Part shown: positions 6,504 to 38,739 of the stretch, one piece after another
How positions within the stretch are numbered: the stretch's first letter is position 1
Layout of the letters: every line of letters starts with the position of its first letter
Sequence record: KT184315.1
Direction: 5' to 3' (one strand)
From: Enterobacteria phage KhF3
DNA: 64,000 nt
The notes under the pieces: model-generated
Seen by the model: only the letters and a program-made list of their open reading frames with translations
Databases searched by the model: none
Told to the model about the DNA's origin: nothing
Position numbers and translations under genes: made by a program

Positions 6504-6510
6504 ATTAATT

Positions 6511-6585
6511 TGGAGCATCCAGAGGGAATCGAACCCTCAACCTCAGTTTGGAAGACTGTAATTTTCCCGTTTAAACTATGGATGC
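6511..6585 (-). tRNA. tRNA-Gly (anticodon TCC)
   Basis: Anticodon loop CTTCCAA, discriminator T. Confidence 0.65.
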
Positions 6586-6591
6586 ACTAAT

Positions 6592-6667
6592 TGGTGGAGT
6601 CACCGAGAATTGAACTCGGTTCCCAAGTTTGCAAAACTCGAATTTTAACCATATAAACTATGACCCC
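6592..6667 (-). tRNA. tRNA-Ala (anticodon TGC)
   Basis: Anticodon loop TTTGCAA; G3-U70 pair in acceptor stem. Confidence 0.7.
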
Positions 6668-6673
6668 ATTGTT

Positions 6674-6749
6674 TGGTACAGGTGGAGGGAATTGAACCCA
6701 TCGTCTTACTGATTAAGAGTCAGCCGCATAACCATTTTGCTACACCTGC
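6674..6749 (-). tRNA. tRNA-Lys (anticodon CTT)
   Basis: Acceptor and anticodon arm fold, but T-stem is only 3 GC pairs. Confidence 0.5.
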
Positions 6750-6756
6750 ATTAATT

Positions 6757-6833
6757 TGGTACACCTAGAGAGATTCGAACTCACACTGAGCAGATTCTAA
6801 GTCTGCTGCCTCTACCAGTTGGGCTATAGGTGC
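6757..6833 (-). tRNA. tRNA with anticodon TAG (Leu by anticodon), short variable arm
   Basis: Acceptor GCACCTA/TAGGTGT, anticodon stem GCAGA/TCTGC loop CTTAGAA, 5-nt variable loop, 74 nt without CCA. Confidence 0.55.
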
Positions 6834-7086
6834 ATTAAATCTTTTTAGAGAACTTCTAAGAACCTAAGCAACAAGGCTCCACAACAAGCTGTAATAACCT
6901 TAGAAGCCCTCTAAAAAGACCTAAATAGGTCTTTGCATAGTCTTGTTTAATCCGGTGACTAGAACCTTTGGAGAGCTTGATATTATCTCTTCTCCGTGAC
7001 ACCTACTAGGTGCTTTGACAGTGTACGACAATACACGAGGGATAAACCGACAATGCGAACAAGCATGGACGGAGTAAATCTTATTA

Positions 7087-7176
7087 GGCGGTAAGTAAAG
7101 GAGTCGAACCCTCACCGTATCTCTACAGTGGCAACTGTTTTCAAGACAGTTTGGCTACCATTAGCCGCTACCTACC
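7087..7176 (-). tRNA. tRNA-Ser (anticodon TGA), class II
   Basis: Acceptor GGTAGGT/ACTTACC, anticodon stem ACTGT/ACAGT loop CTTGAAA, long variable arm. Confidence 0.55.
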
Positions 7177-7189
7177 CCTAATAAGACTT

Positions 7190-7272
7190 TGGCATGGGAC
7201 GGAGGAGTTGAACCCCTTTGAAACGGTTTTGGAGGCCGTTGCTCATGCCTTAGAGTCTTAACATCGTCCCAT
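7190..7272 (-). tRNA. tRNA-Trp (anticodon CCA)
   Basis: Acceptor ATGGGAC/GTCCCAT, anticodon loop CTCCAAA; D region longer than usual. Confidence 0.5.
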
Positions 7273-7414
7273 ATTATAATTCGAAGCTTACCCTGTTATC
7301 TCAACACTGTCAAGCTTCTTCTCAGATTATTTACATGTTCTGGAAAACATGAGATACAGACCACCTCCCTACAGGAAGACCCGCTAAGGCCGTCTAAGTA
7401 ATCTGCTAACTATT

Positions 7415-7491
7415 TGGTACACCCTACAGGATTCGAACCTGTAACTAACGATTTAGAAGACCGTTGCTCTATCCAATTGAACTAAGGGTGC
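7415..7491 (-). tRNA. tRNA-Arg (anticodon TCT)
   Basis: Anticodon stem ACGGT/ATCGT loop CTTCTAA. Confidence 0.7.
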
Positions 7492-7737
7492 ATTATCTTT
7501 AAAGACTCTCTTAGAAAGCCCTTAAAGATGCCCACCTTATTAATCATACCGTGGGCGAGTACGCCAAATTCTTTGATGAGGGATTGGAAGACCTCACTGG
7601 TGTTTAGCCTATCAAGCTACTGCCAGAAAAACATTGTCGTTTGCATTTATTTTAAATTTGCAAAATAGACGCTACGCAACGAAAACTAAGGTTACTATAA
7701 AGTAGTCACATCTCAATGTCAACAACTTTATTGAAAT

Positions 7738-7813
7738 TGGTACTGGTAGGTGGAATCGAACCACCGATGTTCCCTTATCAGGGGAGTGTTATAACCTTCT
7801 TAACTATACCAGC
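7738..7813 (-). tRNA. tRNA-Ile (anticodon GAT)
   Basis: Anticodon loop CTGATAA, T-stem GGTGG/CCACC. Confidence 0.65.
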
Positions 7814-7814
7814 T

Positions 7815-7891
7815 TGGAGGTTCAGATGGGAATCGAACCCACATTCATAGGGCTTATGAGACCCTTGCATTACCTTATCTGCGACTGAACC
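7815..7891 (-). tRNA. tRNA-Met (anticodon CAT), elongator-like
   Basis: Acceptor GGTTCAG/CTGAACC fully paired, anticodon loop CTCATAA. Confidence 0.65.
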
Positions 7892-7969
7892 AGAATAAGT
7901 ACCCTAGTTAGAGAAACTGTTGAGTGGGTGTTTCCAGCCGCGCAGGTGTTTCTCAGTTAAGGGTGAATT

Positions 7970-8045
7970 TGGTAGAAGTGGAGGGATTCGAACCCATCGC
8001 CTGTCAGATTAAAAGTCTGCCGCATCACCATTCTGCTACACTTCC
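7970..8045 (-). tRNA. tRNA-Lys (anticodon TTT)
   Basis: Anticodon loop CTTTTAA; T-stem weak, same T-arm sequence as the CTT copy. Confidence 0.55.
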
Positions 8046-8050
8046 ATTAA

Positions 8051-8192
8051 ATTATCTTTGTAGATAAGCTACCCAGACTTGCTTAAGGTCTGTAGCGATG
8101 TGCCTTTTTGGGTTTAAATCTAGAATTTACCCTTTCACCCTTTGTGGTCGCATACTCACAGGTAAGCTTAATAACTTATCTACAAAGATAAT
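8051..8192. repeat. perfect 17-bp inverted repeat flanking about 108 bp
   Basis: ATTATCTTTGTAGATAA at 8051-8067 and its exact reverse complement at 8176-8192. Confidence 0.8.
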
Positions 8193-8194
8193 TA

Positions 8195-8326
8195 CCAGAC
8201 CGTTGTTTATCATCTTAAGTGCTACCATTACACCAACTCGACATCTGCCGAGTGAAGGAATCGAACCTTCGCCTTTTCTTTACCGGAGAAATAGATTGTT
8301 TAAGTTTTGCTGTAAACGGTCTTCTG
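8195..8326 (-). ncRNA. candidate structured small RNA with tRNA-like module
   Basis: Closing stem CCAGACCG / CGGTCTTCTG; inside, T-arm GAAGG-TTCGATT-CCTTC followed by an ACTCGGC/GTCGAGT hairpin and a D-arm-like GTGTAATGGTAGCAC; order is not that of a canonical tRNA. Confidence 0.35.
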
Positions 8327-8339
8327 TAAAATTGTTGAG

Positions 8340-8418
8340 CCAGACCAAGTTTTATAAATTTTTTCAAAATTAAATTGGCTTGAAAATATCATACGTACTT
8401 GCTGAATTTGGTCTTCTG
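8340..8418 (-). other. inverted-repeat-bounded spacer element
   Basis: CCAGACCAAG ... TTGCTGAATTTGGTCTTCTG. Confidence 0.3.
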
Positions 8419-8505
8419 CTCCTTTAAAGAATACTCGTAAGAACTCTTTAAGGGAGGGGCTAAAATAGCCCTCTCAAACATCATTTTGAAATACTTATTA
8501 TAATT

Positions 8506-8583
8506 TGGCGGTTACGAAGGGATTTGAACCCTCATCATCTCCCGTGACAGGGGAGTATTTTAACCAGATTAAACTACATAACC
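8506..8583 (-). tRNA. tRNA-Asp (anticodon GTC)
   Basis: Anticodon stem CTCCC/GGGAG loop CTGTCAC, CCA encoded. Confidence 0.7.
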
Positions 8584-8589
8584 TTTATT

Positions 8590-8677
8590 TGGTGTGCCGT
8601 GTAGGAGTCGAACCTACCGAGTCTCAATGACAAGGGATTTACAGTCCCCACCGCTACCATCTACGGGATAACGACAC
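8590..8677 (-). tRNA. tRNA-Tyr (anticodon GTA), class II
   Basis: Anticodon loop CTGTAAA, long variable arm, T-stem GTAGG/CCTAC. Confidence 0.65.
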
Positions 8678-8686
8678 ATTTAAATT

Positions 8687-8763
8687 TGGCGGTTAGTCAG
8701 GGATTCGAACCCTGTGCCATTCGCTTAACAGGCGACCGCACATACCTTATGTGCTTCCTAACC
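8687..8763 (-). tRNA. tRNA-Asn (anticodon GTT)
   Basis: Anticodon loop CTGTTAA, T-arm CAGGG-TTCGAAT-CCCTG. Confidence 0.65.
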
Positions 8764-8774
8764 TTAATACATTG

Positions 8775-8834
8775 CCAGACCGTGTTTTTTCTTTTATCCG
8801 CAAAAAGTATTTTGTTGCTGAATACGGTCTTCTG
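8775..8834 (-). other. inverted-repeat-bounded spacer element
   Basis: CCAGACCG ... TTGCTGAATACGGTCTTCTG. Confidence 0.3.
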
Positions 8835-8840
8835 CAAAAT

Positions 8841-19062: not shown

Positions 19063-19073
19063 AATATCTTAAG

Positions 19074-19100
19074 AGCCTCCTTAATTGGGGGCTTTTTATT
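19074..19100 (+). terminator. rho-independent terminator ending plus block
   Basis: AGCCTCC-TTAATT-GGGGGCT followed by TTTTATT. Confidence 0.7.
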
Positions 19101-20676
19101 GAGTAAAATTTACGAAATTTATATTTTTTATAAAATTTTATCGGTTGTTCCAACCTCTGGGTCACCATCATATGTGAACAAAATATCTATCCTTCTTAAC
19201 AGCCTTCTTAATCTTATTCTCTATATAGTTATATAGTACTATATAGTATCTTAGTAACTATCTAGTGGTCTTAATAGCCCTCTGTATAGCCCTTCTAAAT
19301 AGCCCTCTAAACACTCTTCTAACAAGCCTTCTTAACAACCTATACAATCACCTTAACCATCTCTCTACACTCTCTTAGAAGCTCCTATACACCTCTTAAT
19401 CTCTATGTCAGCTATGATACTCTCTATAGGTGTTCACTAGGTGCTACTAAGCCTCTATATAGACTGTTTTAACAAACTTAACAGGAATATCTTTACAGAC
19501 CTTATCTCACAAGGTCTAACACGGTACTAACAAGGTATCTTATAAGCCTGTTATTACCTGTATTTTAGAAAGACTGTATAGGTAATTATTCAGATTTTTA
19601 AAATTTTTATAAAATAGGACTATCAAGTCATTTTTTAGGGTCTTTGAAGGAACTGAAAAATATCTGTAGAAGATGTATATCTGCTTGGTAGCCCTTAACA
19701 TCCCTGTAACATCCCCTTTGCAAAATTTTAAAATATCCTTAACAATCTCTTAACAGTTCTCACATCTTCTTAATAACTCTTCAAAGTTCTTAACAGATTC
19801 TTAACAGAACTAACAAGGGCTTAACAGTTTTCTAACAAGTGCTGAATAGACTTTACAGAATCTTAACAGATTCCTAACAAGAGCTCAGTAGTTAAATGTT
19901 AAGAGTTATTTTGTTAAGATAATTAACAAGTTTCTAACAAGTGTTTAATCTTTTTAACAAGCTATTAACATGGTCACTACTCTTTTCTTATCGTTCCCTT
20001 TCCTTTCTTAGTGATTCCTTAAACATACCTCTTAAAAGCTCTGTATAGCTCTGTATAACCCCTTTTAAGCCTCTTCCTAGTAATTACACCCCAACTATAC
20101 AGATACCTCTTTATAGGGCTTTACAGGGGCTTTAAAGGCTATGTCAAAGGTTCTTACAAGGCTTTTACGTGGTTTTAACAGAGATTTAACAAGGGGCTAA
20201 CAAGTCTCTAACAAGTGCCTTAAAAGCATAACTATGTAGGGATTGTTAAGAAATTGTTAAGAAAATGTTAAGGGGGCTAGCATTTACGTAACTTTTAAGC
20301 AACTTTGAAGTAACTTTATAACCCCTATAACATACTTTTCAGTTACTATCAAGGGGCTTGTTTAGTAGTTCACAAGATAGCTAACGAGATAATAAAACTT
20401 ACACCCTTATAAGATTCTTTTAAGGTTCTAGGAAGCTTTATAAAGGGCTTTTTAGAGCAGGTTAATATGATTGCTTAAGTTAGGTTGATAAGGCTGTTAT
20501 AGAGCTTTATAGAGCGTTTTAGTGGTTGCCCTTCCCTTTCGGGTTATGGGCTTATATTTAAGTTGATTTGATAAGAAGATATAGAGTAGACTATAGAGTT
20601 ATTGCTTTTAAGGTCTGGTAAGATTCTAACTTGTTAGGGGAGTCTGGGAAGATTCTGGGAAGGGATTGGATAGACG
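19101..20676. repeat. 1.6-kb non-coding region dense in short direct repeats (YTAACAR, CTATAGAG families)
   Basis: No ORF over 60 aa; more than 20 copies of CTTAACAG / CTAACAAG / TTAACAAG-like octamers; lies between convergent terminators. Confidence 0.7.
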
Positions 20677-20702
20677 TAAAAAAGCCCCTATGAGAAGGAG
20701 CT
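20677..20702 (-). terminator. rho-independent terminator ending minus block
   Basis: Minus-sense AGCTCC ... GGGGCT hairpin followed by T6. Confidence 0.6.
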
Positions 20703-20740
20703 TTTCAGGTATCTGGGGCTAAATAGCCCCGTTGCGTCGA

Positions 20741-20989
20741 TTAGTTGTAACCTTGTTTGCTGTAGTATAGGGAGACGATTTTTTCTCCCCAGTAGTGGTA
20801 GTGATATTCCTCGTTTATGGCTTCTTTTACAGCGTCCTTCCAAAAGTCATCGGTAGGGTTATAATCTGGTAGCACCTGCTGAATCAGCATTTTGATAAGG
20901 TCAAAGGTGTTATCTGTTCCACCGATATCGAATTTTGCATCAAGTTCGTGGCAGCCATAAGCATTAACAGTTACGCGGATAGTTGACAT
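20741..20989 (-). CDS. early-region small hypothetical protein
   Basis: 82-aa ORF preceded by cassette with GGAG RBS. Confidence 0.5.
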   Translation of the reverse strand: MSTIRVTVNAYGCHELDAKFDIGGTDNTFDLIKMLIQQVLPDYNPTDDFWKDAVKEAINEEYHYHYWGEKIVSLYYSKQGYN

Positions 20990-21054
20990 AATTTAGATTC
21001 TCCAGTTTAGGACTTTACTTAGTGGGGGGAGGTCATCCCCCGTTAATTAGTAAT

Positions 21055-21318
21055 TTACTGCATATTGGCGTATGTTGCAAGCCTTTTTTCGTTGTATTTT
21101 GTAAGAATCTCACAAGATACAACATCATACTTTGTAACAGCGTTGCCTTTATCGAGGTCAAAAAAGCCAAACGCTTTACCATCTTTGAATCCGACAACTT
21201 CGTAAGATTCTTTGATGATTTCACCATTGAACAAATCACTTTCGATACGGTGAAATAATGCTACATCTTCTTTGTCGGTTGCAATTTGTAAAAGTGTGGT
21301 TAATTCTACGTTTTCCAT
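21055..21318 (-). CDS. early-region small hypothetical protein
   Basis: Chosen over overlapping track ORFs because the cassette RBS sits immediately upstream. Confidence 0.5.
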   Translation of the reverse strand: MENVELTTLLQIATDKEDVALFHRIESDLFNGEIIKESYEVVGFKDGKAFGFFDLDKGNAVTKYDVVSCEILTKYNEKRLATYANMQ

Positions 21319-21407
21319 CTTGATAACTCCAGTTTAGGACTTTATTTAGTGGGGAAGGTCATTCCCTCCCCGTTGATTGACAATTTACAGATTTTTATCA
21401 GGCTTGT

Positions 21408-21641
21408 CTAGTCTTTTTCAATGATAATTTCATACTGACCATCTACGCTGTCAAAATAGACACCTTCTTCATCTTCTGTCTTAAAGTAACATTGTATATC
21501 ATCACTGGCGGGATAGTCTTGCCTTGCTATCTGGCACACTTGAACAGCATTTTCTTTACTCCCTGTAAACTCCTCAAGCCCTTTAAAATCGCATGAATGA
21601 CCGTTACAAATAGAAAGGATGAGGTAAATGGTTGTAAGCAT
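21408..21641 (-). CDS. early-region small protein with hydrophobic N-terminus
   Basis: 77-aa ORF. Confidence 0.45.
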   Translation of the reverse strand: MLTTIYLILSICNGHSCDFKGLEEFTGSKENAVQVCQIARQDYPASDDIQCYFKTEDEEGVYFDSVDGQYEIIIEKD

Positions 21642-21707
21642 GATTTAAGCCTCTTAAAAGCCCCTTACAGGGGCTGAATAGTGTTTATAAGGTGATTGCA
21701 TAGGTTT

Positions 21708-22250
21708 TTAGAAAAAACCCTTTAAATCCTCTTCTGCGATGTTTCCTGTCAGTGTATCCATGATGTCACAAAAAACCTGAATACTGTCCGACTGTTGAAC
21801 ACTTTTAGCAAGTAGTTCTAATGTCTCATCAAGATAGTTTAAATTTGGGTTATCCAATGAAGGAAGACAAAAAGGTGAATACATAGCGTTAAACTCTGTT
21901 GTATAGACCTTTTTAATCCAATTTATATCAAAATACTCTGTAAAACTTGCTACACTCGACATATTATCACAAGAATAATCATCGTTTAGTTCATCCTCTG
22001 GAATATCAAGTTCTAGGATAACAATATTTTGTGTCTTCATCTGGAAAGCTGCGGTGATAGTGGCATTGCCTAAAGCTTGCTGGATACCTTCAGAGATTAT
22101 TTCTTCCTCATCGTCGCCATAGATTTTATTTTCTGGATACACGTAAAAATTGCCGTCCATATCCGAACAATTCCATGCGCCTGATGGTTTATCACCGTTA
22201 TTAATCAGGTTGAGGAAATTTTCTTGAGTAGTTCCGTGATAGCATTTCAT
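21708..22250 (-). CDS. early-region hypothetical protein
   Basis: 180-aa ORF. Confidence 0.5.
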   Translation of the reverse strand: MKCYHGTTQENFLNLINNGDKPSGAWNCSDMDGNFYVYPENKIYGDDEEEIISEGIQQALGNATITAAFQMKTQNIVILELDIPEDELNDDYSCDNMSSVASFTEYFDINWIKKVYTTEFNAMYSPFCLPSLDNPNLNYLDETLELLAKSVQQSDSIQVFCDIMDTLTGNIAEEDLKGFF

Positions 22251-22337
22251 TTTTGAATCTCCTAGTTTAAGGATTTAGTGGTAAAGCTCTTTATCTGGGG
22301 CTTACTTTATCGAACTATAAGCCCCTTGTAAAGTACT
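22251..22337 (-). promoter_or_regulatory. early-gene cassette type A: promoter overlapped by palindrome, then RBS
   Basis: Minus-sense AT-rich tract, TTTACA, 17 nt, TAAAGT; palindrome GGGGCTTA-N13-TAAGCCCC spans the -10; GGAGA RBS; about 7 near-identical copies. Confidence 0.55.
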
Positions 22338-22586
22338 TTATTTAACTTTCTTTGAGAAAATTAGTTTAACTGCAACCGTAGGAACCTCGTCAGCGATTGT
22401 AACCAGCATCACTTTTTGAGTGACCAACTTATAACCGTTCTTTGCAGCGTATGCGGTAAAACGGTTGACATTGTAACTATAAGTTTTTGGTGTGTTATCT
22501 GGCATGTGGTAAATGAAAGGTTTACCCAAATTTTCTTCTTGTGTCAATAATCTACAGGTATCGGGAATGTTAAAGTAGTTCATCAT
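22338..22586 (-). CDS. early-region small hypothetical protein
   Basis: 82-aa ORF flanked by cassettes. Confidence 0.5.
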   Translation of the reverse strand: MMNYFNIPDTCRLLTQEENLGKPFIYHMPDNTPKTYSYNVNRFTAYAAKNGYKLVTQKVMLVTIADEVPTVAVKLIFSKKVK

Positions 22587-22672
22587 TTTTAGAATCTCCA
22601 GTTTAGGATTTAGTGGTAAAGCTCTTTATCTGAGGCTTAAGTTATCAACTTTTAAGCCCCTTGTAAAGTACT

Positions 22673-22876
22673 TTATTTGTTATTTTTGACAACTTTTAAA
22701 ACTGCAAGATAGCCTAAGCAATAAGAATCACCGAAGAGAGTCCTACCCATGAAAGAATCCTCTTTGATATCCTTTGCAGTGACAGTTTTTTCTACGCCGT
22801 GGGAAAGGACTATATCACCAACTTTGATATCTTTGATGTGTGTAGTTTCAATGGTTAAACCATTAATAATAGCCAT
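22673..22876 (-). CDS. early-region small hypothetical protein
   Basis: 67-aa ORF flanked by cassettes. Confidence 0.5.
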   Translation of the reverse strand: MAIINGLTIETTHIKDIKVGDIVLSHGVEKTVTAKDIKEDSFMGRTLFGDSYCLGYLAVLKVVKNNK

Positions 22877-22978
22877 TTTTAGAATCTCCAGTTTAGGACT
22901 TTATTTAGTGGGGAAGGTCATTCCCTCCCCGTTGATGTGTAATTTAATCTATCTAAAAACCAGTGTCAACAAAATTTT
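22877..22978 (-). promoter_or_regulatory. early-gene cassette type B: promoter, leader hairpin, RBS
   Basis: Minus-sense TTGACA (22964-22969), 17 nt, TAAATT (22941-22946); 8-bp GC hairpin GGGGAGGG/CCTTCCCC in the leader; GGAGA RBS; about 5 copies. Confidence 0.6.
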
Positions 22979-23383
22979 TTAGAGTTCTGCATAAATTGCA
23001 TCACAGATATCGCGGAAGTCATGATTAGTCAAATTACGCTGCAACCAAGTGGCGAAAAAGTCAGCGATTGCAAAGTTAGCATCATACTCGACAGATAGCC
23101 ACACTTTAACAGCAAATCGGAACATTTTCAAATCTAACTCTTTATTCATTACCTTAGATTTGCCTAACATGTCGGACATTTCATATTGCGCACCGTCTAG
23201 TGTGATACCTGCTGCAACGTCAGCCAATGAATTTTTTACGTTTTCAACGTCTAAAATAACGCTTTGAATCTTTCCGATAATGTTGTGCAATGTCTCATCA
23301 GGCGCTGATGATGTCATAATGTTGATTCGATTAACGGTCAAACGTGCTTTTAAGGTTGATAATTCACGGTTATTAATAGCCAT
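22979..23383 (-). CDS. early-region hypothetical protein
   Basis: 134-aa ORF. Confidence 0.5.
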   Translation of the reverse strand: MAINNRELSTLKARLTVNRINIMTSSAPDETLHNIIGKIQSVILDVENVKNSLADVAAGITLDGAQYEMSDMLGKSKVMNKELDLKMFRFAVKVWLSVEYDANFAIADFFATWLQRNLTNHDFRDICDAIYAEL

Positions 23384-23468
23384 TTTAGAATCTCCAATTT
23401 AGGATTGAGTGGTAAAGTTCTTTATCTGGTGCTTACTTTATCGAACTATAAGCCCCTTGTAAAGTACT

Positions 23469-23741
23469 TTATACTAAATGCAGCTTTTTACCTTTTACTA
23501 TGATGTAACTAGATGCACTATTGCTTTGCACATCCTGATAAATTCTGCGCAAACGTCCTTCGTAGTATACTTTCCAACTGGTTGGAATCTTTTTCCCGTA
23601 TCCTGTAGCAGTTTTTTGGAGTCCTGCAACTTGCCAATTTAAGATGTGTTGCTCAGCCCGTAAATCTTCAAAGCACATCACACCGTCTACATAGTGACGC
23701 AAGGTGACATTTAAGGTGCGACCGTTGTTAGTAGTATACAT
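23469..23741 (-). CDS. early-region small hypothetical protein
   Basis: 90-aa ORF. Confidence 0.5.
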   Translation of the reverse strand: MYTTNNGRTLNVTLRHYVDGVMCFEDLRAEQHILNWQVAGLQKTATGYGKKIPTSWKVYYEGRLRRIYQDVQSNSASSYIIVKGKKLHLV

Positions 23742-23830
23742 TTTCAGAATCTCCAGTTTAGGACTTTATTTAGTGGGGAAGGTCATTCCCTCCCCGTTGA
23801 TGTGTAATTTAGCCTATCTAAAAATCAGTG

Positions 23831-24163
23831 TCAAACACTTTGTTTTCGTTTGCTCAATTCTTGAACAATTACAGCGTAGTAGTCTTTTAAGTCACTGATA
23901 TTTAAAGCGTTTATCAGTGAATTATAATCATCAATAAGTTGATAGTCATCTTTGAAAATGTCACTAATCTGATAGGTTTTCGCTTTAAATCTAAAGCTCA
24001 TCTCTAGCCGCTTTATTTGCTCATCACTTAAACGCCCTAGAAAGCTCTCTACAAGGTTATTACTAACCTGCTGTGTGATTGCCTTACTTGCCAGATTATA
24101 GGCTTTATATGCCTTATATAGCGCGAAAATGGCAATGATTGCAGTGATACCAGTCATTAACAT
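23831..24163 (-). CDS. early-region small membrane protein
   Basis: N-terminal hydrophobic helix. Confidence 0.5.
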   Translation of the reverse strand: MLMTGITAIIAIFALYKAYKAYNLASKAITQQVSNNLVESFLGRLSDEQIKRLEMSFRFKAKTYQISDIFKDDYQLIDDYNSLINALNISDLKDYYAVIVQELSKRKQSV

Positions 24164-24453
24164 GGTGTTTCCTCTTTACGTGATACTTTGCCATTTACAG
24201 ATATCTCATAAGATTCTAATAAATCGCTTTTAGACTTTACAGGACTTTTAAAAGTATCATCATAAATATTAACTTGCAATACAGGTTTTTTATACTCCCT
24301 GCAACTGTTCCATAAGCAAATCACTACACGACGGCCTTTGATTTTTCCGTGTAACCATTCCATAACATCATGACTATTCCTTGATGTTTCAATGAAATCA
24401 ATTTTATTAAGTAACTTGCTTAAATTTTCACGGACTTTATTTGATAATTTCAT
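24157..24453 (-). CDS. early-region small hypothetical protein
   Basis: 98-aa ORF. Confidence 0.5.
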   Translation of the reverse strand: MKLSNKVRENLSKLLNKIDFIETSRNSHDVMEWLHGKIKGRRVVICLWNSCREYKKPVLQVNIYDDTFKSPVKSKSDLLESYEISVNGKVSRKEETPC

Positions 24454-24545
24454 TTTAGAATCTCCTAGTTTAAGGGTTGATTTGAATAAAGCTCTTTATC
24501 TGGGGCTATCTTATCAGTCTGATAACCCCGTGTAAAGAAATCTAT

Positions 24546-25058
24546 TTAGTTCTTAAAGATATTCATCACTGAGTCTTTCAACGATTCCAAACGTTCTAAT
24601 ACTTCAGATTCTGCGTCTGCGTTGTTCACCTCTTCTTTTAGTCTATCCTCTAAATCATCGCCGTCACGATAGCACCAATCGAAAGCATAACCAAGATAAA
24701 AACTTTCTAAAACCGTGCTACCGTTTGCATCCACAACTTTCGCGGCAAGGTTATACTCTGAAGCCTCTAAATCTCTTTCTAGTTCTTTCTGTAAGCTCGT
24801 GTAAGCCTCTTTCGATGGATTCTCACGGCCTTGTTTTGCATAGTCACTTGAAAGCTGTTTAAGGCTGTAATGTAAAGGGATTGCATATTTAAATTCATTA
24901 CGCTGACAGTTAGGATTTTTAATCGTCACACCGCCTTGATGGTCATCTGTAAACTTCCAATTATCAAGATTATGGCTTGCTTCAAAGCAATTTACCGCTT
25001 CGTAAATAATGGTGAATTTTTCTTTTACAACTTCAAAGGTAGCGTCTACAGTTTTCAT
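24546..25058 (-). CDS. early-region hypothetical protein
   Basis: 170-aa ORF. Confidence 0.5.
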   Translation of the reverse strand: MKTVDATFEVVKEKFTIIYEAVNCFEASHNLDNWKFTDDHQGGVTIKNPNCQRNEFKYAIPLHYSLKQLSSDYAKQGRENPSKEAYTSLQKELERDLEASEYNLAAKVVDANGSTVLESFYLGYAFDWCYRDGDDLEDRLKEEVNNADAESEVLERLESLKDSVMNIFKN

Positions 25059-25145
25059 TTTTGAATCTCCTAGTTTAAGGATTGAGTGGTAAAGCTCTTT
25101 ATCTGGGGCTTAAGATATCAACTTTTAAGCCCCCTGTAAAGTACT

Positions 25146-25454
25146 TTATTTGTTAATTTTCAGCTTTGCATAACTTCTCATTGTACGAATGGGGGATGTT
25201 AATGCTACGCGTCTAATGTATGCCTTTTTCGTGTATACAGTTGTCTTCCCGATAGTGTTTACACATGTAAAAAGGTTTATCGGTGAATTTTTTAACTTCA
25301 ACTGTTTATCAACCTTCACGCCCCACCTTACAGCAGATTGTTTTCCGTTGTCAACCACTTTCCCGCATAACTTTTTAGCCATGATACGAGCGTCATCACG
25401 AGTCTTTGCGGTAATTACAACGTTTTTGATAATAGCCATTTTTAAGTTCTCCAA
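25146..25454 (-). CDS. early-region small basic protein
   Basis: 102-aa ORF. Confidence 0.5.
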   Translation of the reverse strand: MENLKMAIIKNVVITAKTRDDARIMAKKLCGKVVDNGKQSAVRWGVKVDKQLKLKNSPINLFTCVNTIGKTTVYTKKAYIRRVALTSPIRTMRSYAKLKINK

Positions 25455-25525
25455 TTTAGGATTTAGTGGTAAAGCTCTTTATCTGGGGCTTACTTTATCG
25501 AACTATAAGCCCCTTGTAAAGTACT

Positions 25526-25909
25526 TTATTTGTTAATTTTGAAGGTAGTTACATAACCATCACTACCGATTATTTGAGACACTCCAGCTTTTTCTACTTT
25601 ATAGCCCATATTTTCAAGATGATAAACAGCATCATCATAACCATATGCGCCACCCTGATAACGTCTCTTATCACATTTTATCAGGTTTTTACCACGTCCA
25701 GCAAGTGCATGTAAAATGGCTTTTTCACTTGAAAGAGTACCATCTAACATGGTTGCCGTGTAATGGTTGATTCTATTCCCGTTTACATCATACTTAAAAT
25801 TGAATGCGTGAACAATGATAATGTTACCTTTAAAATTTTCATCAAGTGACTTCTCCAGTGCGTTGCGAAAGTTGTCTTTGTTGATGAATTTCGGTGCACG
25901 ATAAGCCAT
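25526..25909 (-). CDS. early-region hypothetical protein
   Basis: 127-aa ORF. Confidence 0.5.
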   Translation of the reverse strand: MAYRAPKFINKDNFRNALEKSLDENFKGNIIIVHAFNFKYDVNGNRINHYTATMLDGTLSSEKAILHALAGRGKNLIKCDKRRYQGGAYGYDDAVYHLENMGYKVEKAGVSQIIGSDGYVTTFKINK

Positions 25910-25997
25910 TTTTGAATCTCCTAGTTTAAGGGTTAATTTAGTAAAGCTCTTTATCTGGGGCTTAAGATATCAGCTTTTAAGCCCCCTGTAAAGTACT

Positions 25998-26219
25998 TTA
26001 TTTGTCGTAGTAGTAAATCGCTGTCTGCCTTGTAAATTTCTTAGTGTTTCTTGTAAGGTAGCAATTAGAATTAATAGCCGTTTCTACATAGTTGCAATAG
26101 TCGGCTTCTGATATTCTGGACCATACGCCACAAATTTGCATGTAAAAACGTTTTACCTTTGTGTTAACGTTAGTTGTAACCATCAATTCACGACTGTAAA
26201 GCATTATTTCGCGCTCCAT
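25998..26219 (-). CDS. early-region small hypothetical protein
   Basis: 73-aa ORF. Confidence 0.45.
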   Translation of the reverse strand: MEREIMLYSRELMVTTNVNTKVKRFYMQICGVWSRISEADYCNYVETAINSNCYLTRNTKKFTRQTAIYYYDK

Positions 26220-26392
26220 TTCTCAAAGAGTTCAGCAGGGAAACGTTCGCTATACCCTTTTAAGGAAAAAGTATTATCTTTGTGGATAGCTTCCACCTGA
26301 TAAACCTTATAAGAGCGTATAGTTAGCATTTTGTAAGAGTATTCGTGCTTAATGTTAACCTCATCGCCAACTTTAATTTTTCTTGATGCCAT
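26204..26392 (-). CDS. early-region small hypothetical protein
   Basis: 62-aa ORF, first gene behind promoter 26456-26484. Confidence 0.45.
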   Translation of the reverse strand: MASRKIKVGDEVNIKHEYSYKMLTIRSYKVYQVEAIHKDNTFSLKGYSERFPAELFEKWSAK

Positions 26393-26455
26393 TTTTGAAT
26401 CTCCAGTTTAGGATTTTATTTAGTGGGGAAGGTCATTCCCTCCCCGTTGATGTAA

Positions 26456-26484
26456 ATATTAGATAACCACGTTCAAAGAGTCAA
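26456..26484 (-). promoter_or_regulatory. sigma70-like promoter heading the early array
   Basis: Minus-sense TTGACT, 17 nt, TAATAT, with AT-rich upstream tract. Confidence 0.6.
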
Positions 26485-26660
26485 TAAAAATTTTAAAAAT
26501 ATTTTTGGCAAAACTGTAATGAAACGGGTGCGCACGACTACCACAAAACAGAACGCAAATCAAGAATTATTTTTCAATCCGCTACAAATTTTTCTATTGA
26601 CTTTTGGGGAGAGGGGGAGTAAGAGGGGGAGAGGTGTTGGGCTGGCTGTCTATAAAAACC

Positions 26661-26839
26661 TACCTGCACAATTCTAAAATGATTTTTCTTGCCCGACCTG
26701 AGCGGAGTCTGCACGTTTTGAAAATGAAAAAGCTCTTTGGAGATTACCTGCACAGTTTGAAAATGAATTTTCTCTTTGGAGTTCAAAATTCTCTCTACAG
26801 ATTTCTCTACAGAACTCTACCTGCACAATTCTGAAATGA
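26661..26839. repeat. four direct repeats CTGCACARTTYTRAAATGA in non-coding region
   Basis: Copies near 26664, 26710, 26748, 26821; adjacent G-rich tract GGGGAGAGGGGGAGTAAGAGGGGGAGAGG at 26606-26634. Confidence 0.65.
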
Positions 26840-26912
26840 AAAAGCCCTCCTTACCTGAAAAATTTACCAGATAAGAAAGGCTTAGGCTATTGTGAATATC
26901 CTACAGAGTTTC

Positions 26913-27698
26913 TTAGTTCTTTGCGTCTAAGAAGGTAACTTCTGGTGAAGAGAAGATTGCCTCGATATCCTCATCAGTTCTTGCATAGATATAAGCTTCT
27001 GCATCACTACCAAATGTTACAGCAATTCTGTGATTGCTCTTTGACAGGTGGGTAACTAGAGCGTTACTTAGAGACATCTTTTCAACCGGAGGGTTACTTT
27101 GATGTATCTTACCTTTTCTTCGTCTGAAGAGGGTAACTGCATTATCCGTGAACACAACTACACCTGCAAAGTATTCTGGTTCACAGTAGTTCTCCCAACC
27201 TGAGCGTAACTTGTGGTACATCTCTCCTTCATAGACATATAGATAAACATCTACACTCTTCATCACCTGATTAATGATAACTGTGACGGCTTGAGGGTCT
27301 AGCCCACCGATACCTGCACCAATCATAGGTAACCCGACTTTCTTCAACTGATTGACTTCACAGTATCTGTTAAGCTGTTTCAAAGATGACTCTAAAGCAC
27401 TGTATCGGGCATCTTTACCAGTCTTAAGCTGAGTGTAAAGGTTAGCTATACGACCTTGTTTTAAACGTGCTACAGAGAAATTACCCAGTAAATTTTCACA
27501 GGGTTTGTGTCCTATACCACCTGCATATAGATAAACTTCTGTATCGGTCTCATATGCTTTTGGGTAAAGTTTAGAAATCTTGTCAGCGATACCTGCACCC
27601 ATTAAATTCATACAGTTGCAACCGTGACCGATGATGTCAAACTTACCTTTATCAAATGCGGCAAAGATATCACCATTGATTATTTTTACAATACCCAT
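26913..27698 (-). CDS. macro domain-containing protein (ADP-ribose binding or hydrolase)
   Basis: N-terminal GDIFAAF ... IGHGCNCMNLMGAGIADKI matches the macro-domain glycine-rich signature. Confidence 0.6.
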   Translation of the reverse strand: MGIVKIINGDIFAAFDKGKFDIIGHGCNCMNLMGAGIADKISKLYPKAYETDTEVYLYAGGIGHKPCENLLGNFSVARLKQGRIANLYTQLKTGKDARYSALESSLKQLNRYCEVNQLKKVGLPMIGAGIGGLDPQAVTVIINQVMKSVDVYLYVYEGEMYHKLRSGWENYCEPEYFAGVVVFTDNAVTLFRRRKGKIHQSNPPVEKMSLSNALVTHLSKSNHRIAVTFGSDAEAYIYARTDEDIEAIFSSPEVTFLDAKN

Positions 27699-31051: not shown

Positions 31052-32161
31052 TTAGATTTCACGTTTACGTTGAGAGATGAGTTCACCAGCAGTGCCAACG
31101 ATGACATGCAAAGCTTCAGTCTTACCGTCCCATGCTTCCAGCACTTTACGTTGATTATCAACGATTGCTGCAACTTCATAACGAGAGGAACGCATCTTCA
31201 TATCGTTGTAATCAGTTGGAACAGATACAACATCTCGTGGATGTACGCGAACCTTCAGGATTGTATCACCTGAGAAGCAACGAACATAATCCCAAGCACC
31301 AACATGAAGACCTTGAGAGCAAGTTACGTTACGGTTATTATCAACCATCCAACGTGGCATTTCTACAATGTTACCCAAATCATTAGGCACTTTGTAGGTG
31401 TGAGAGTCAACCAGCTTGCCTTCACGAGTAGAGACTTTCTTCCAACCAATGATGTAGCCTTCTTCATCAATTTCAACATCAAGGTGAGATACAAATCCCC
31501 AAAGTTGTTCTACAGAATCTTTAGATGGGTTTTCCATCAGTTTTTCGAAGAACATTACAAGTCGTTCAAAACCTTTATCGCCAGTTTTCATCATGTGAAG
31601 AATACGGTCAACCAGAGTAGAACGCATCTCAACAGTACCGTAGAATAGCTTGTCACCTTTGATTGTGATAGTACCCTGAGTGAAGTTTTCGATAGACTTA
31701 CGAATGTTCATCAGTTCAAATGCTTTCTTGAACTCACCTTTCACAACATGAACTACAATCTCTTGATAGTTCGGATGAGTAGACTCAACAATTTCAGATT
31801 CTGAACCATAAGTCATAATTACAGAATCACCAGTAATCATGTACTCAATCTTGTCATCTTTCTGCATAGCTTCGTGCAGTTTATTTACTGGAGCTTTCTG
31901 TACAGTGTCTTTAACGACATTTTCAACTGGTTTGCCAGCTTTCTTTTTAAAAGTCTTAGCAACTTGCTTCAAAGTCTTCGTAGCTGGTGTAGAAGTTGCC
32001 TTTTTATTCCCTTTTAGGGTTGCTTCATGACGCTCTACAGCACGACCAACTGAACGGGTTGAAGTGTTAAATTTCTGTGCAATAGCTGTTTTGGTCAGCT
32101 TACCTTCTTTTACCAGTTTGTAAATTTCTGCGTCAATCTGTGCTTTAGTTTTAGTAGTCAT
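31052..32161 (-). CDS. rIIB-like protein
   Basis: 369-aa ORF immediately downstream of rIIA-like gene; N-terminal helix-turn-helix-like segment; assignment by synteny. Confidence 0.45.
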   Translation of the reverse strand: MTTKTKAQIDAEIYKLVKEGKLTKTAIAQKFNTSTRSVGRAVERHEATLKGNKKATSTPATKTLKQVAKTFKKKAGKPVENVVKDTVQKAPVNKLHEAMQKDDKIEYMITGDSVIMTYGSESEIVESTHPNYQEIVVHVVKGEFKKAFELMNIRKSIENFTQGTITIKGDKLFYGTVEMRSTLVDRILHMMKTGDKGFERLVMFFEKLMENPSKDSVEQLWGFVSHLDVEIDEEGYIIGWKKVSTREGKLVDSHTYKVPNDLGNIVEMPRWMVDNNRNVTCSQGLHVGAWDYVRCFSGDTILKVRVHPRDVVSVPTDYNDMKMRSSRYEVAAIVDNQRKVLEAWDGKTEALHVIVGTAGELISQRKREI

Positions 32162-32240
32162 CTTATTACTCTCTCTTGTTAGTTAATCAATCAATTTGTG
32201 AGGCTATTCTAAGGGGCTTCAAAGCCCCTTGTCAAACACT

Positions 32241-34607
32241 TTAATCGTAAATTGTTGTACCTTCTGGAACACATTTCACATCAAAGCCTAAAAACTTACT
32301 CACTTCGATAGGTGATACTTTATTCCAATCTAAGTGTGAAAGCAAGAAGTTTTCTTGTTTTCTTTTTGAAAGATAGTTTGTCAGCTTGATAACCATGCGG
32401 TCACCTGCTTTCTTAATCTTTTTGTACAGTTTTGTGTCATTATCAAGGCATGACTTCAAATCCTGAAGAACACTGATAGTGTAAGTGTATGCAAACGGTG
32501 CAGCCACATACTGAATCTTACCAAACATTGCCTCAACAGCATCTTCATTCCCTTCTAAGAAGATTGTCTTAATAGTATCCCTTGAATAACAATACCCGCG
32601 AGAAATCTTCCTGTTATTAAACGTAAAGTTTCTGGCAATAATCCAACTGCTTGTAAGGTCAAGGACACCATTCATATAGATACGTGTCATATATCTGTTA
32701 TGGTTAATCCAGTGAACATCAGTTAAGCTGTCGTTCAAGAGTTTCTCATCTACTTCAATCCAATCTTCTGGTATCTTTTTCCAATTTGCTTTTCGGAAAA
32801 CATAGACTGTCTTACCTGTAACATTAGCAACTGACTTAGCTACATCTTCTGGAGATGAGCAAAAACATCTACCATCAACTGTGTCGCCTACTGCCTTAAT
32901 ATAAAGCTGAGGTTCTTCAATTGTGTCTAAGTCCTCTGACACCTCTTTGTAGGAGGCTACACCTTCTGCTGGAACAGCTTTCCAGAGTTTTACAACACCT
33001 CTTACAGCTTCTTTACGCTGGTAATGGTGTTCCTTATCAGACATTTTCACAATCTTTAACAAGCTTTTATCAAGTTTGTGCAGATTGATTAAGTCATCTA
33101 ACTCTTTTTCAGTCGAGAATACAAAGACAATACCATTGTATCTGTGAAACAGACTTGACTCACTGGCATAGTCTCGACATGCACCACGCAAGATTTGGTT
33201 GCGTCCTACAGTCTTCTCAGTACCATTTTTATTGCGACGGTCATTTATAACAAACAAAAACTGTTCAATTTGGCTTTTACGCATTGCGCCAAAGATATTG
33301 AACATACTTGCCTCTTGAGTGTAGGAAAGTGCTGTTGCACGAATCTTACTCTCTAAAGAGTTGAACTTGACATAAGCAACTGGGTCATAAAGATAATCTA
33401 CTTTAGGGATGTTGTTTCCGTTCCTATCAACCTTAATATTACCTTTACCGTCACGTTCATAAATGACTGAGCCGTCTTCTGCGTAGATAATTCCACGACG
33501 AATGTTTAGTAATTCTTCTTCCAGAGAATCAAGCTTAACGCCTCCCCACTCTAACTTTGGACACACAGCATTAAACATCTCTCGTGAGTTCAAACGTAAC
33601 TCAGCATAAGCCTGTGCAGCATCCATGAGTGTAGGTTGACTGTTAACTTTCTTGATAACATCCTTTGTAATTGCTTCAGTTATCTTTTTAGTAGCCTCAA
33701 TGATAACATTTTTTGTCGTGTCATTCATCTGCAATGCTTCACGAGAAGCTGCAATAGCGACTGAACCAATAGGCATGTAGATGTTTACAAGGTCTACGCT
33801 CCTACGGAAAAATTCTGGCAATACTTTGAAGAAATTATCACCAAGTAATGCTTCCATGTTAACAGGGTAGGCAATGTTACCCATCACCACATTAAACTCT
33901 GTCCTGTTATCACTAGAACGCCAGCTGTGCTTATGAATCATGGCATCATAAACACCTTCTTCACGGGCAATGACGTTCATATCTGCTAATACATCGTCGT
34001 ACTCAATATTACTTTCTGGTTTTACAGTGAAGTATGAGTACACATTCCCAGCTTCTTCAAAGAACTTTGAGATACGGTGGTCAGCAACCGCCACACGTAC
34101 AGCTAAACCATTAGGTTCTTTTGTTGGGTTAGTTGTCAGCTTAGTTACTTGAGGGATACCATTCTCAAGATAAACAGAGTACTTATTAACAACACCATCA
34201 ACATAGCTAGATACTGTGAATGACTGAGCAATTGCAAATGGTGACTTTGAGCCGATACCCATTGCACCAATGTAGTCATTAGAGTCATTCTTCGTAGAAG
34301 CTCCATAGTTTAGGTACAAACTCATAACTTTATCATGAGTCAATCCAGTTCCAAAATCACGAACTTCGAAGTAAGGCTCAAAACGAGTAGGTAAATGCAC
34401 ATGGAATGGGATGTTCTCTTTTCCAGCTTCTTTCTGAGCATCTACTGCGTTACATGACAGTTCACGAATCACTGCCCTTTCTTTAAAGGTATATACACCA
34501 GAACTCAAAAGGCTGAACATCTCAGGTGTCATTGTAATCTGTGCTTGAGACGTCTCTAAAGAAGTTGAACTCTTAATCACTTCTGCGTGGTCATTTACCA
34601 TGCGCAT
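32241..34607 (-). CDS. rIIA-like protein with GHKL ATPase domain
   Basis: N-terminal NAVDA, DFGTG and GAMGIGSKSPF motifs; about 790 aa. Confidence 0.65.
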   Translation of the reverse strand: MRMVNDHAEVIKSSTSLETSQAQITMTPEMFSLLSSGVYTFKERAVIRELSCNAVDAQKEAGKENIPFHVHLPTRFEPYFEVRDFGTGLTHDKVMSLYLNYGASTKNDSNDYIGAMGIGSKSPFAIAQSFTVSSYVDGVVNKYSVYLENGIPQVTKLTTNPTKEPNGLAVRVAVADHRISKFFEEAGNVYSYFTVKPESNIEYDDVLADMNVIAREEGVYDAMIHKHSWRSSDNRTEFNVVMGNIAYPVNMEALLGDNFFKVLPEFFRRSVDLVNIYMPIGSVAIAASREALQMNDTTKNVIIEATKKITEAITKDVIKKVNSQPTLMDAAQAYAELRLNSREMFNAVCPKLEWGGVKLDSLEEELLNIRRGIIYAEDGSVIYERDGKGNIKVDRNGNNIPKVDYLYDPVAYVKFNSLESKIRATALSYTQEASMFNIFGAMRKSQIEQFLFVINDRRNKNGTEKTVGRNQILRGACRDYASESSLFHRYNGIVFVFSTEKELDDLINLHKLDKSLLKIVKMSDKEHHYQRKEAVRGVVKLWKAVPAEGVASYKEVSEDLDTIEEPQLYIKAVGDTVDGRCFCSSPEDVAKSVANVTGKTVYVFRKANWKKIPEDWIEVDEKLLNDSLTDVHWINHNRYMTRIYMNGVLDLTSSWIIARNFTFNNRKISRGYCYSRDTIKTIFLEGNEDAVEAMFGKIQYVAAPFAYTYTISVLQDLKSCLDNDTKLYKKIKKAGDRMVIKLTNYLSKRKQENFLLSHLDWNKVSPIEVSKFLGFDVKCVPEGTTIYD

Positions 34608-38688: not shown

Positions 38689-38739
38689 TTTACCTCCAAA
38701 ATAAAAAGGGAACCTTTACAGTCCCCTTATAGTATCTGT

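Follow-up and report, generated by a model that had tools for sequence, protein, structure and literature searches.

Promoter-early stem-loops (PeSLs) are composite regulatory elements of the T4-type phages RB49/phi1, PST and nt-1 (Arbiol et al. 2010, PMC2839356; Comeau et al. 2014, PMC4122927). In RB49/phi1, the stem-loop of a PeSL cut the expression of downstream lacZ about as much as the rrnB T1 terminator did, and the PeSL promoters are so strong that point mutations in the -35 or the -10 box were present in nearly all of the clones obtained (PMC2839356; PMC4122927). Here we describe an array of small genes on the minus strand of Enterobacteria phage KhF3 (record KT184315.1), in which promoter, hairpin and ribosome-binding site (RBS) are combined in cassettes that recur between consecutive open reading frames (ORFs); all coordinates refer to the analysed stretch of 64,000 nucleotides (nt), hereinafter the window. 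These cassettes are probably PeSL-type composite regulatory modules of a Felix-O1-like phage. The design as such has already been shown for T4-type phages but was previously unreported in Felix-O1-like phages, which the two PeSL papers (PMC2839356, PMC4122927) do not mention, so that the KhF3 elements are best filed as PeSL-type cassettes in Ounavirinae.

The array consists of 15 small minus-strand ORFs (g1 to g15; 62-180 amino acids, aa), with the ORFs spanning 26,392 to 20,741. All 15 match a PHROG family, with E-values from 1e-32 to 1e-93, and therefore can be considered real, conserved genes; all these families are of unknown function, and no Pfam domain reaches the cutoff in any of the 15 products. 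A cassette lies upstream of 12 of the genes, the exceptions being g2 and g7, the second members of the overlapping pairs g1/g2 and g6/g7, and g13; the intergenic regions within the array are 65-102 nt long. The original prediction, made from the sequence of this DNA, of some 15 small genes separated by at least 12 copies of two cassette types with a nearly identical RBS-to-ATG segment, turned out to be accurate. The cassettes belong to two families, type A with five copies (nhmmer E-values 2e-32 to 3e-24) and type B with seven (9e-33 to 6e-25), and profile searches detect no further full copies in the window; searches with the hairpin blocks give four occurrences for type A and seven for type B. 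Of the five occurrences of the RBS-to-ATG string CCTAAACTGGAGATTCTAAAAATG, two are exact and three have 1-3 mismatches, compared with 0 expected, and the remaining cassettes carry the variant CCTTAAACTAGGAGATTCAAAAATG. The translation-initiation region of ∼25 nt that is common to both types reads CC-U(U)AAACU-(A)GGAG, 8-9 nt, AUG, and GGAG is located 8-9 nt ahead of the ATG in all 12 cassettes. Similarity between the copies spans 85-118 nt and, accordingly, is not restricted to the RBS, which disposes of the first of the two outcomes that the original prediction itself had named as fatal.

In type A, a -35 box (TTGACA, TTGACT, TAGACA or TTGCAA) is followed, after 17 bp, by a -10 box (TAAATT or TAATAT), a 10-nt stretch with ATCAAC at its end, the hairpin GGGGAGGGaaugaCCUUCCCC, the segment ACTAAATAAAGTCC, the RBS TAAACTGGAG and, 8-9 nt further on, the ATG, with the hairpin located at +39 to +60 from the first base of the -35 box. 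The cassettes collected from the relatives, IMG/VR loci included, number 107 of type A and 124 of type B. In the 61 unique type A copies, the promoter spacer is invariably 17 nt long (61 of 61), and the hairpin follows the -10 box at a distance of 10 nt in 57 copies and of 11 nt in the other 4. The stem, only 6-8 bp long, comes in at least eight complementary versions, including GGGGAGG/CCUUCCCC, GGGAGG/CCUCCC, GGGGAAG/CUUCCCC, GGGGC/GCCCC and GGGC/GCCC.

Type B is built differently, in the order ...AAATAAAGTA-CTTTACA-N17-TAnnnT, with the spacer and the -10 box contained in the hairpin GGGGCUUA...UAAGCCCC, which is followed by AGATAAAGAGCTTTACCACTAAATCC and the shared RBS block. With positions counted from where the -35 box starts, the hairpin occupies +7 to +36 and the -10 box ends at +29, so that the hairpin is predicted to form only in RNA that comes from upstream. 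In the alignment of 63 unique type B sequences (alignment A1), no variation is seen in CTTTACA, the TA of the -10 box or AGATAAAG, the final T of the -10 box is retained in at least 90% of the copies, and the remaining bases of the loop vary; TAnnnT is found 17-18 nt past TTTACA in every unique copy.

All type B copies are predicted to fold into the same three-tier hairpin of ∼60 nt, with 19-20 bp interrupted by 1x1 and 3x3 internal loops, that is, a lower stem UAAAGU/GCUUUA, a middle stem CUUUA/UAAAG and 8-11 bp in the upper stem. In the alignment, 95.3% of the cells are paired in this structure, compared with 91.4% in column shuffles, none of 500 of which reach the observed value, and with 32-56% for slid partners. 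Both sides of the stem have changed at four pairs, namely 12-65 (GC in 46 sequences, UA in 8), 26-52 (GC in 55, UA in 7), 33-46 (AU, UA, UG and GC) and 8-69 (UA to AU). Among the 17 well-registered pairs (three upper-stem pairs that MAFFT mis-registers in the GGGGTTATC subclass were excluded), there are 100 G.T cells versus 2 A.C cells, a count to which two positions and related sequences contribute most. Thus, only the sense strand maintains the pairing, a bias that is consistent with RNA and speaks against a symmetric DNA element. In the window, the hairpin is the minimum-free-energy fold in 12 of the 12 cassettes, with z-scores from -1.2 to -4.4.

A scan with the sigma-70 consensus accepts 10 of the 12 cassette promoters and finds 32 promoter-like sites in the region, compared with 18.7 +/- 3.9 in shuffled sequences; one type A site is annotated as a promoter in the AYO145A record. 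The combination of a promoter, a hairpin and an RBS in each cassette had been correctly recognized, and it is borne out by the promoter hexamers and the covarying hairpins across genera described below; the original structural reading was largely right but missed both the position of the type B -10 box inside the hairpin and the identity of the design with the described PeSLs. Two further promoter candidates were rejected: a T4 MotA-box-like middle promoter in ...GAGCTTTAC-N11-TAAACT was dismissed by inspection because transcription would start at or after the Shine-Dalgarno (SD) sequence, and the downstream CTTTACC does not qualify as the -35 box of a second promoter, there being no TAnnnT at 16-18 nt.

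Some smaller features of the cassettes concern their two ends. Each cassette opens at or just ahead of the upstream stop codon, in an A/T-rich stretch; in type B, this opening is AAAATTAACAAATAAAGTAC, with the stop codon included, and in type A, the -35 box overlaps or closely trails the stop. The genes upstream of type B cassettes (g3, g4, g10 and g11, ending at 25,526, 25,146, 22,673 and 22,338, respectively) finish with ...KINK, ...KNNK or ...KKVK before the stop, so that the A-rich, UP-element-like start of the cassette is coding and the cassette homology extends into the upstream gene. At the other end, ∼12-22 nt before the ATG, a mini-hairpin can form between the SD sequence and an upstream CCU in all 12 cassettes. 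Two variants of this segment, UCC-UAAACU-GGA and UCCU-UAAACU-AGGA, differ by a matched U/A insertion and account for 156 and 59 of 215 copies, respectively, with zero mixed forms; in Erwinia phages, the corresponding mini-hairpins are CCUU-AUA-AAGG and CCUC-AAA-GAGG. The matched insertion could reflect tight linkage or selection for a weak stem that masks the SD sequence.

The resemblance to the PeSLs extends to part order, position, genomic setting and variation. In both cases, a stop codon in an A/T-rich stretch is followed by sigma-70 -35 and -10 boxes, a GGGG...CCCC stem-loop with G.T pairs, an SD sequence and the ATG, and the same positional classes are found, with the stem-loop either in the interval from the -35 box to the -10 box or overlapping the latter (type B here) or just past it (type A here). 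The elements are densely placed in a variable region, between small ORFs to which no function is assigned, the gene content of this region differs across 20 related arrays, and the crossovers of indels and replacements fall inside the cassettes. The features that define PeSLs at the sequence level, namely the start at a stop codon, sigma-70 boxes, stem-loop, SD sequence and ATG, location in a variable region and in-cassette crossovers, are all present in the KhF3 cassettes. Direct reading of the RB49 intergenic regions reveals an SD-to-ATG segment (CTGGAGAATCAAAAATG / CTAGGAGAATCAAA.ATG) almost identical to that of KhF3, in both the CTGGAG and the CTAGGAG forms. The RB49 spacers run through TAA, an A-rich stretch, GTTGTTGACA, the hairpin GGGGATC..GATCCCC, TATAAT, a leader and CTAGGAGAATCAAAAATG, and others have the -10 box (TAAGAT) inside the hairpin GGGAGUAguaagaUACUCCC, like the KhF3 type B.

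There are also clear differences. KhF3 belongs to the Ounavirinae (∼88 kb) rather than to the Straboviridae, and blastn detects no homology between the cassettes and T4-type phages. Compared with the RB49 PeSLs, the KhF3 cassettes make up only two, tightly homogeneous families, and type B has TTTACA in place of TTGACA and an extended three-tier helix of ∼60 nt that takes in the -35 region and the first transcribed bases. The measured promoter, terminator and mini-circle activities are those of RB49/phi1.

Both types of cassettes are present in Felixounavirus, Mooglevirus (Mordin) and Suspvirus (SUSP2), and the type B promoter and hairpin are found, with a different RBS, also in Kolesnikvirus (Erwinia phages). 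Across these four genera of Ounavirinae, the promoter hexamers are fixed and the hairpin arms covary. A scan of IMG/VR yields many chance single matches, whereas real cassettes are detected by nhmmer only in Felix-like contigs of ∼84-90 kb. The identity of the cassettes between genera is 74-85%, compared with ∼47-49% genome identity between the same genera (∼47% genome-wide for Mordin versus Felix O1 according to the Mordin announcement, PMC4611695). Concerted evolution was considered and set aside given its weak signal: paralogs within a genome (0.87 for type B and 0.81 for type A) are only slightly more alike than positional orthologs in other genera (0.85 and 0.77, respectively).

The layout of the two cassette types suggests how they might work. 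The host RNA polymerase would start at every cassette soon after infection, so that each module of one or two genes would have its own promoter. The original prediction further proposed that this expression is strong and that the genes act in host takeover, which, for products without a functional assignment, would be a putative role. In type A, the start is predicted 7-8 nt past the -10 box, and the mRNA would begin 2-4 nt ahead of a stable stem-loop. A stem-loop 2-4 nt from the 5' end has the geometry that protects E. coli mRNAs from 5'-end-dependent decay, and the type A hairpin may act as such a 5'-terminal stabilizer. The 5'-terminal stem-loops of the ompA 5' untranslated region and others, reportedly described as mRNA stabilizers by Emory, Bouvet and Belasco in 1992, are comparable in that the type A hairpin, fixed 10 nt past the -10 box, would leave ∼2-4 unpaired nt ahead of it, given the predicted start. 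In type B, the -10 box lies in the loop and the 3' arm, and with the start predicted at the 3' foot of the upper stem, the mRNA made from this promoter would lack the hairpin. The hairpin would instead appear in read-through RNA, where it might attenuate read-through and/or shield the 3' end of the upstream mRNA from 3' exonucleases, insulating neighbouring modules from each other.

Several observations weigh against the interpretation of the cassettes as PeSL-type modules. The middle stem and most of the lower stem of type B are invariant and hence uninformative, and the compensatory changes are few, occur in related sequences and could in part reflect shared ancestry of cassette subfamilies. 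In the terminator scan, no cassette hairpin qualifies as an intrinsic terminator, and the tails ACUAAAUAAAG (type A) and AGAUAAAGAG (type B) lack a U-tract, so that this function was ruled out and classical intrinsic termination is not expected at the cassette hairpins. In end-point reverse transcription PCR of Felix O1, the sole source of expression data for this group of phages, the peak is at 5 min for ORFs 16, 20, 21 and 22 but at 25 min for ORFs 14, 17, 19 and 23; the array is, therefore, expressed early to middle, but half of its ORFs peak at 25 rather than 5 min, with no A/B pattern. Finally, the literature library that was searched contains neither mapped transcript ends (5' or 3') nor reporter data nor RNA-seq for any Ounavirinae phage.

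Three other explanations of the repeats can be compared with the PeSL-type interpretation. In T7, RNase III processing sites are located between the early genes and three promoters are found at the left end only. By analogy, the KhF3 array could yield one transcript, from the first promoter (26,484) to the terminator at ∼20,680, with the hairpins serving as RNase III/RNase E processing or stabilizing sites at which it is cleaved to monocistronic mRNAs and the internal hexamers being incidental or minor. The type B helix, interrupted, with 19-20 bp and ∼60 nt, is about the size of an RNase III substrate, a largely double-stranded RNA of some two helical turns (∼20 bp); as in T7, a structured, irregular hairpin of ∼60 nt separates consecutive genes, and its cleavage would leave a 3' hairpin on the upstream mRNA; there is no canonical terminator inside the array, and the pairing is sense-strand specific. 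This scheme nevertheless appears improbable: the TA...T and TTTACA elements are invariant at the 17-18-nt spacing in 63 unique copies from four genera, within an otherwise variable loop, the type A spacer is 17 nt in all 61 unique copies at a fixed distance of 10 nt from the hairpin, and the equivalent PeSLs are active as promoters in reporter assays (PMC2839356; PMC4122927). Each KhF3 cassette, unlike the T7 sites, has its own conserved promoter, and the hairpins of type A are shorter than RNase III requires. That said, RNA processing and internal promoters are compatible, not mutually exclusive.

The stem-loops might alternatively act as DNA, as binding sites or cruciform targets for a phage protein such as an early-shutoff repressor or a recombination protein, with RNA folding being irrelevant. 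The near invariance of AAAGTACTTT and AGATAAAGAGCTTTAC, which flank the type B promoter, and the crossovers inside cassettes would fit, but, in view of the strong excess of G.T over A.C, there would be mismatches in the antisense strand or in a symmetric cruciform, the AAAT...ATTT variants break local palindromes while keeping the long-range pair, and the type A stem sequence is free to change, all of which makes a purely DNA-level role quite unlikely. It is hardly credible that the repeats are only 'start-associated sequences' (SASs), that is, a conserved RBS translation signal with the remaining similarity hitch-hiking from recent duplication. The Mordin announcement described only a 26-bp RBS-proximal repeat and likened it to mycobacteriophage SASs (PMC4611695), and the RBS segment is indeed common to both cassette types; the SASs of cluster K mycobacteriophages (PMC4611695) resemble it in being a conserved motif with an SD sequence right before the start codon of a subset of genes in one genome arm. 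The sequences, however, are unrelated, the KhF3 RBS motif is only the 3' third of a promoter and hairpin cassette, the similarity extends over 85-118 nt at far greater identity than that of the genomes, covariation maintains promoter spacing and hairpin pairing, and Erwinia phages keep the type B promoter and hairpin although the RBS differs. Judged by the alignments, the restriction to a translation signal is already contradicted.

The array, interpreted as a series of PeSL-type modules, is bounded by two intrinsic terminators, and its features, all on the minus strand, are listed below in the order of transcription.

26842-26883, minus strand: intrinsic terminator of the rIIA-to-phosphatase operon (= Felix O1 t13), the upstream boundary of the array
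20741-26503, minus strand: the whole array, 15 ORFs and 12 promoter/hairpin/RBS cassettes between two intrinsic terminators
26393-26503, minus strand: type A cassette before g1, TTGACT (26484)-17-TAATAT, hairpin 26445-26425, RBS CTGGAG
26204-26392, minus strand: g1, 62 aa, phrog_15633, function unknown
25998-26219, minus strand: g2, 73 aa, phrog_5293; overlaps g1, without cassette
25910-25997, minus strand: type B cassette before g3, TTTACA (25992)-17-TATCTT, upper stem 25985-25957
25526-25909, minus strand: g3, 127 aa, phrog_4495
25440-25525, minus strand: type B cassette before g4, TTTACA (25520)-17-TAAAGT, upper stem 25513-25485
25146-25439, minus strand: g4, 97 aa counted from the ATG at 25439, phrog_5089
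25059-25145, minus strand: type B cassette before g5, TTTACA (25140)-17-TATCTT, upper stem 25133-25105
24546-25058, minus strand: g5, 170 aa, phrog_4190; PVP-SE1 homolog gp200
24454-24545, minus strand: type B cassette before g6, TTTACA (24536)-17-TAAGAT, with variant arms GGGGTTATC/GATAGCCCC and lower stem AUAGAU/CUUUAU
24157-24453, minus strand: g6, 98 aa, phrog_4401
23831-24163, minus strand: g7, 110 aa, phrog_4375, hydrophobic N-terminal helix; overlaps g6, without cassette
23742-23834, minus strand: type A cassette before g8, TTGACA (23834, overlapping the g7 stop)-17-TAAATT, hairpin 23795-23775
23469-23741, minus strand: g8, 90 aa, phrog_3436; homologs in several other phage families
23384-23468, minus strand: type B cassette before g9, TTTACA (23463)-17-TAAAGT, one G-A mismatch in the upper stem
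22979-23383, minus strand: g9, 134 aa, phrog_4327
22877-22978, minus strand: type A cassette before g10, TTGACA (22969)-17-TAAATT, hairpin 22930-22910
22673-22876, minus strand: g10, 67 aa, phrog_3623
22587-22672, minus strand: type B cassette before g11, TTTACA-17-TAACTT, upper stem 22660-22632 including a G.U pair
22338-22586, minus strand: g11, 82 aa, phrog_9030
22251-22337, minus strand: type B cassette before g12, TTTACA (22332)-17-TAAAGT, upper stem 22325-22297
21708-22250, minus strand: g12, 180 aa, phrog_3303; distant homologs in Pakpunavirus and Vibrio phages
21642-21707, minus strand: g12/g13 spacer (66 nt, unrelated to the cassettes), with terminator-like hairpin AGCCCCTGTAAGGGGCT (21675-21659), UUUU and RBS GAGG
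21408-21641, minus strand: g13, 77 aa, phrog_4640; N-terminus MLTTIYLILSIC resembling a signal or lipoprotein sequence
21319-21410, minus strand: type A cassette before g14, TAGACA (21410)-17-TAAATT, hairpin 21371-21351; recombinant, with the crossover between AAAGTCC and TAAACTGG
21055-21318, minus strand: g14, 87 aa, phrog_7022
20990-21080, minus strand: variant type A cassette before g15, TTGCAA (21080, within g14)-17-TAAATT, hairpin 21041-21025 (GGGGGA/CCTCCCCC)
20741-20989, minus strand: g15, 82 aa, phrog_4559
20677-20730, minus strand: end of the array, type-B-like remnant hairpin GGGGCTATTTAGCCCC-AGATA (20730-20715), then the intrinsic terminator GCUCCUucucauAGGGGC with U6 (20704-20677), = Felix O1 t23

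The 6.5-kb region that contains the array matches 258 records, mostly of phages infecting E. coli, Salmonella and Shigella; Felixounavirus genomes match over most of its length, and the best matches are KhF2 and KhF1 at 96% identity. In annotated relatives, rIIA, rIIB, a phosphatase gene and a rho-independent terminator precede the array, and a second terminator closes it, followed by ∼1.6 kb free of genes. KhF3 shows the same layout, with rIIB and rIIA at 31,052-34,607, a 261-aa ORF at 26,913-27,698 and the terminator at 26,883-26,842. The records of KhF1 and KhF2 annotate the type A hairpins as rho-independent terminators on the strand opposite to all genes; in that of KhF2 (KT184314), most of the array ORFs are left unannotated.

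Module order, expressed as ORF families and cassettes, was compared among 20 related arrays. The arrays vary by whole modules, each consisting of one cassette and one or two ORFs, through gain, loss, relocation or duplication: in KhF2, two additional modules, x7 and x8, each with a type A cassette, lie between g13 and g14; AYO145A lacks g1, g2 and g11; Felix O1 lacks g1, g3, g4 and g10-g14; in Mordin, g1 is placed after g13; and one IMG/VR genome (L034, ∼6,980-7,780) contains a tandem duplicate of g4 with its cassette, in the order B, g4, B, B, g4. The g13-g14 cassette of KhF3 is a chimera, its left part, through AAAGTCCT, being the same as the KhF2 g13-x7 cassette and its right part, from AAACTGGAGTTATCAAG, the same as the KhF2 x8-g14 cassette, which places the crossover within a few bases, inside the cassette. 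When the KhF3 array is aligned with 15 relatives using blastn, 76 of the 85 internal alignment ends fall inside cassettes, compared with the expectation of 25%, although these events are shared by descent, and so are not independent, and repeats attract alignment ends. Homologous recombination between the dispersed cassettes of 85-118 nt deletes, inserts, moves and duplicates whole modules, in agreement with the recombination-driven shuffling at which the original prediction had hinted. A recombination scar is seen in another IMG/VR locus (L031, ∼1,100-1,130), where an RBS-ATG is joined, with only 3 nt (TTT) in between, to the spacer that belongs to the following type A promoter (ATGTTTGGTTTTAAAAGCAAGTAAATT).

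Some of the array genes have homologs outside the Ounavirinae, with g8 and g12 represented in other phage families. In PVP-SE1 (Vequintavirinae), the homologs of g5 and g8 adjoin each other and are separated from the neighbouring ORFs by spacers of 68-84 nt that contain TTGACx-N17/18-TATAAT, with a hairpin in the promoter spacer, around the -10 box or after it. The PVP-SE1 spacers differ from the KhF3 cassettes in not being repeated families and in having GAGGT/AAGGT as the RBS; no description of them as PeSLs was found. The near-identical SD-to-ATG ends in RB49 and Felix-like phages, together with the g5 and g8 homologs in the PVP-SE1 promoter-in-hairpin arrays, are the reason to consider a wider scenario, which we regard as unlikely, in which gene-cassette exchange is shared across Straboviridae, Ounavirinae and Vequintavirinae, as unrelated families of large, virulent myoviruses of enterobacteria, with modules moving between families, for example, as mini-circles, and in which the type B hairpin is a dedicated processing/attenuation RNA element coupling 3'-end formation in the upstream module to the next promoter.

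If the PeSL-type interpretation holds, the PeSL design reaches beyond T4-type phages, to the Felix-O1-like phages that are in wide use for the typing and biocontrol of Salmonella and E. coli. The Felix O1 genome paper listed 57-bp and 39-bp repeats without interpretation and stated that the promoters and the temporal control were unknown; the cassettes would provide a concrete answer to the question of where the early promoters are located. Most of the differences among close felixounaviruses sit in the array region, as whole-gene modules. The 12 predicted strong early promoters, the two RNA hairpin designs and the standard RBS are potential parts for phage engineering, and the 15 early ORFs as defined here make up a set for toxicity or anti-defence screens. 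The public annotation of the type A 'terminators' of KhF1 and KhF2, which are on the wrong strand, is also corrected.

Several minor features of the array and its surroundings are worth recording. The start of g13, MLTTIYLILSICNG, is signal- or lipoprotein-like, and g13 is the sole gene with a terminator-like hairpin instead of a cassette upstream; judging from their sequences, g13 and g7, with its hydrophobic N-terminal helix, could be membrane or superinfection-exclusion proteins. Just past g15, GGGGCTATTTAGCCCC-AGATA looks like a decayed type B upper stem with its 3' flank, right before the true terminator. Between the upstream terminator and the first cassette (26,560-26,870, minus strand), TCATTTTCAnAAyTGTGCAGGTA is present in 4-5 copies, with the C-rich tract CCTCTCCCCCTCTTACTCCCCCTCTCCCC after them. 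In the window, 19,070-20,700, between the array terminator and convergent plus-strand genes, is a stretch of ∼1.6 kb without ORFs that contains dozens of 8-mers of the CTTAACAG / CTAACAAG type, spaced at 10-11 nt and 31 nt, in both orientations; the matching gap is unannotated in AYO145A, Felix O1 and Mordin, and from its repeats the stretch looks like an iteron/origin region or a protein-binding array. A search of 20,400-27,000 against Rfam 15 gives, up to E = 1, only a chance match to a long non-coding RNA model, on the opposite strand at 20,622-20,714, outside the cassettes (19.3 bits versus the gathering score of 70, E = 0.74). Across the whole window, only tRNAs reach the gathering score; the tRNA cluster, with 24 genes at 3,926-9,170 (minus strand), is as expected in Felix-O1-like phages. 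Other composites of a promoter and a hairpin, outside both cassette families, are located at 38,708-38,726 (minus strand), 16,494-16,517 (plus strand) and 32,161-32,241 (minus strand), the latter in the rIIA/rIIB spacer, where, in TTGACA-AGGGGCTTtgAAGCCCCT-TAGAAT, the hairpin fills the promoter spacer exactly, like in the RB49 PeSLs.

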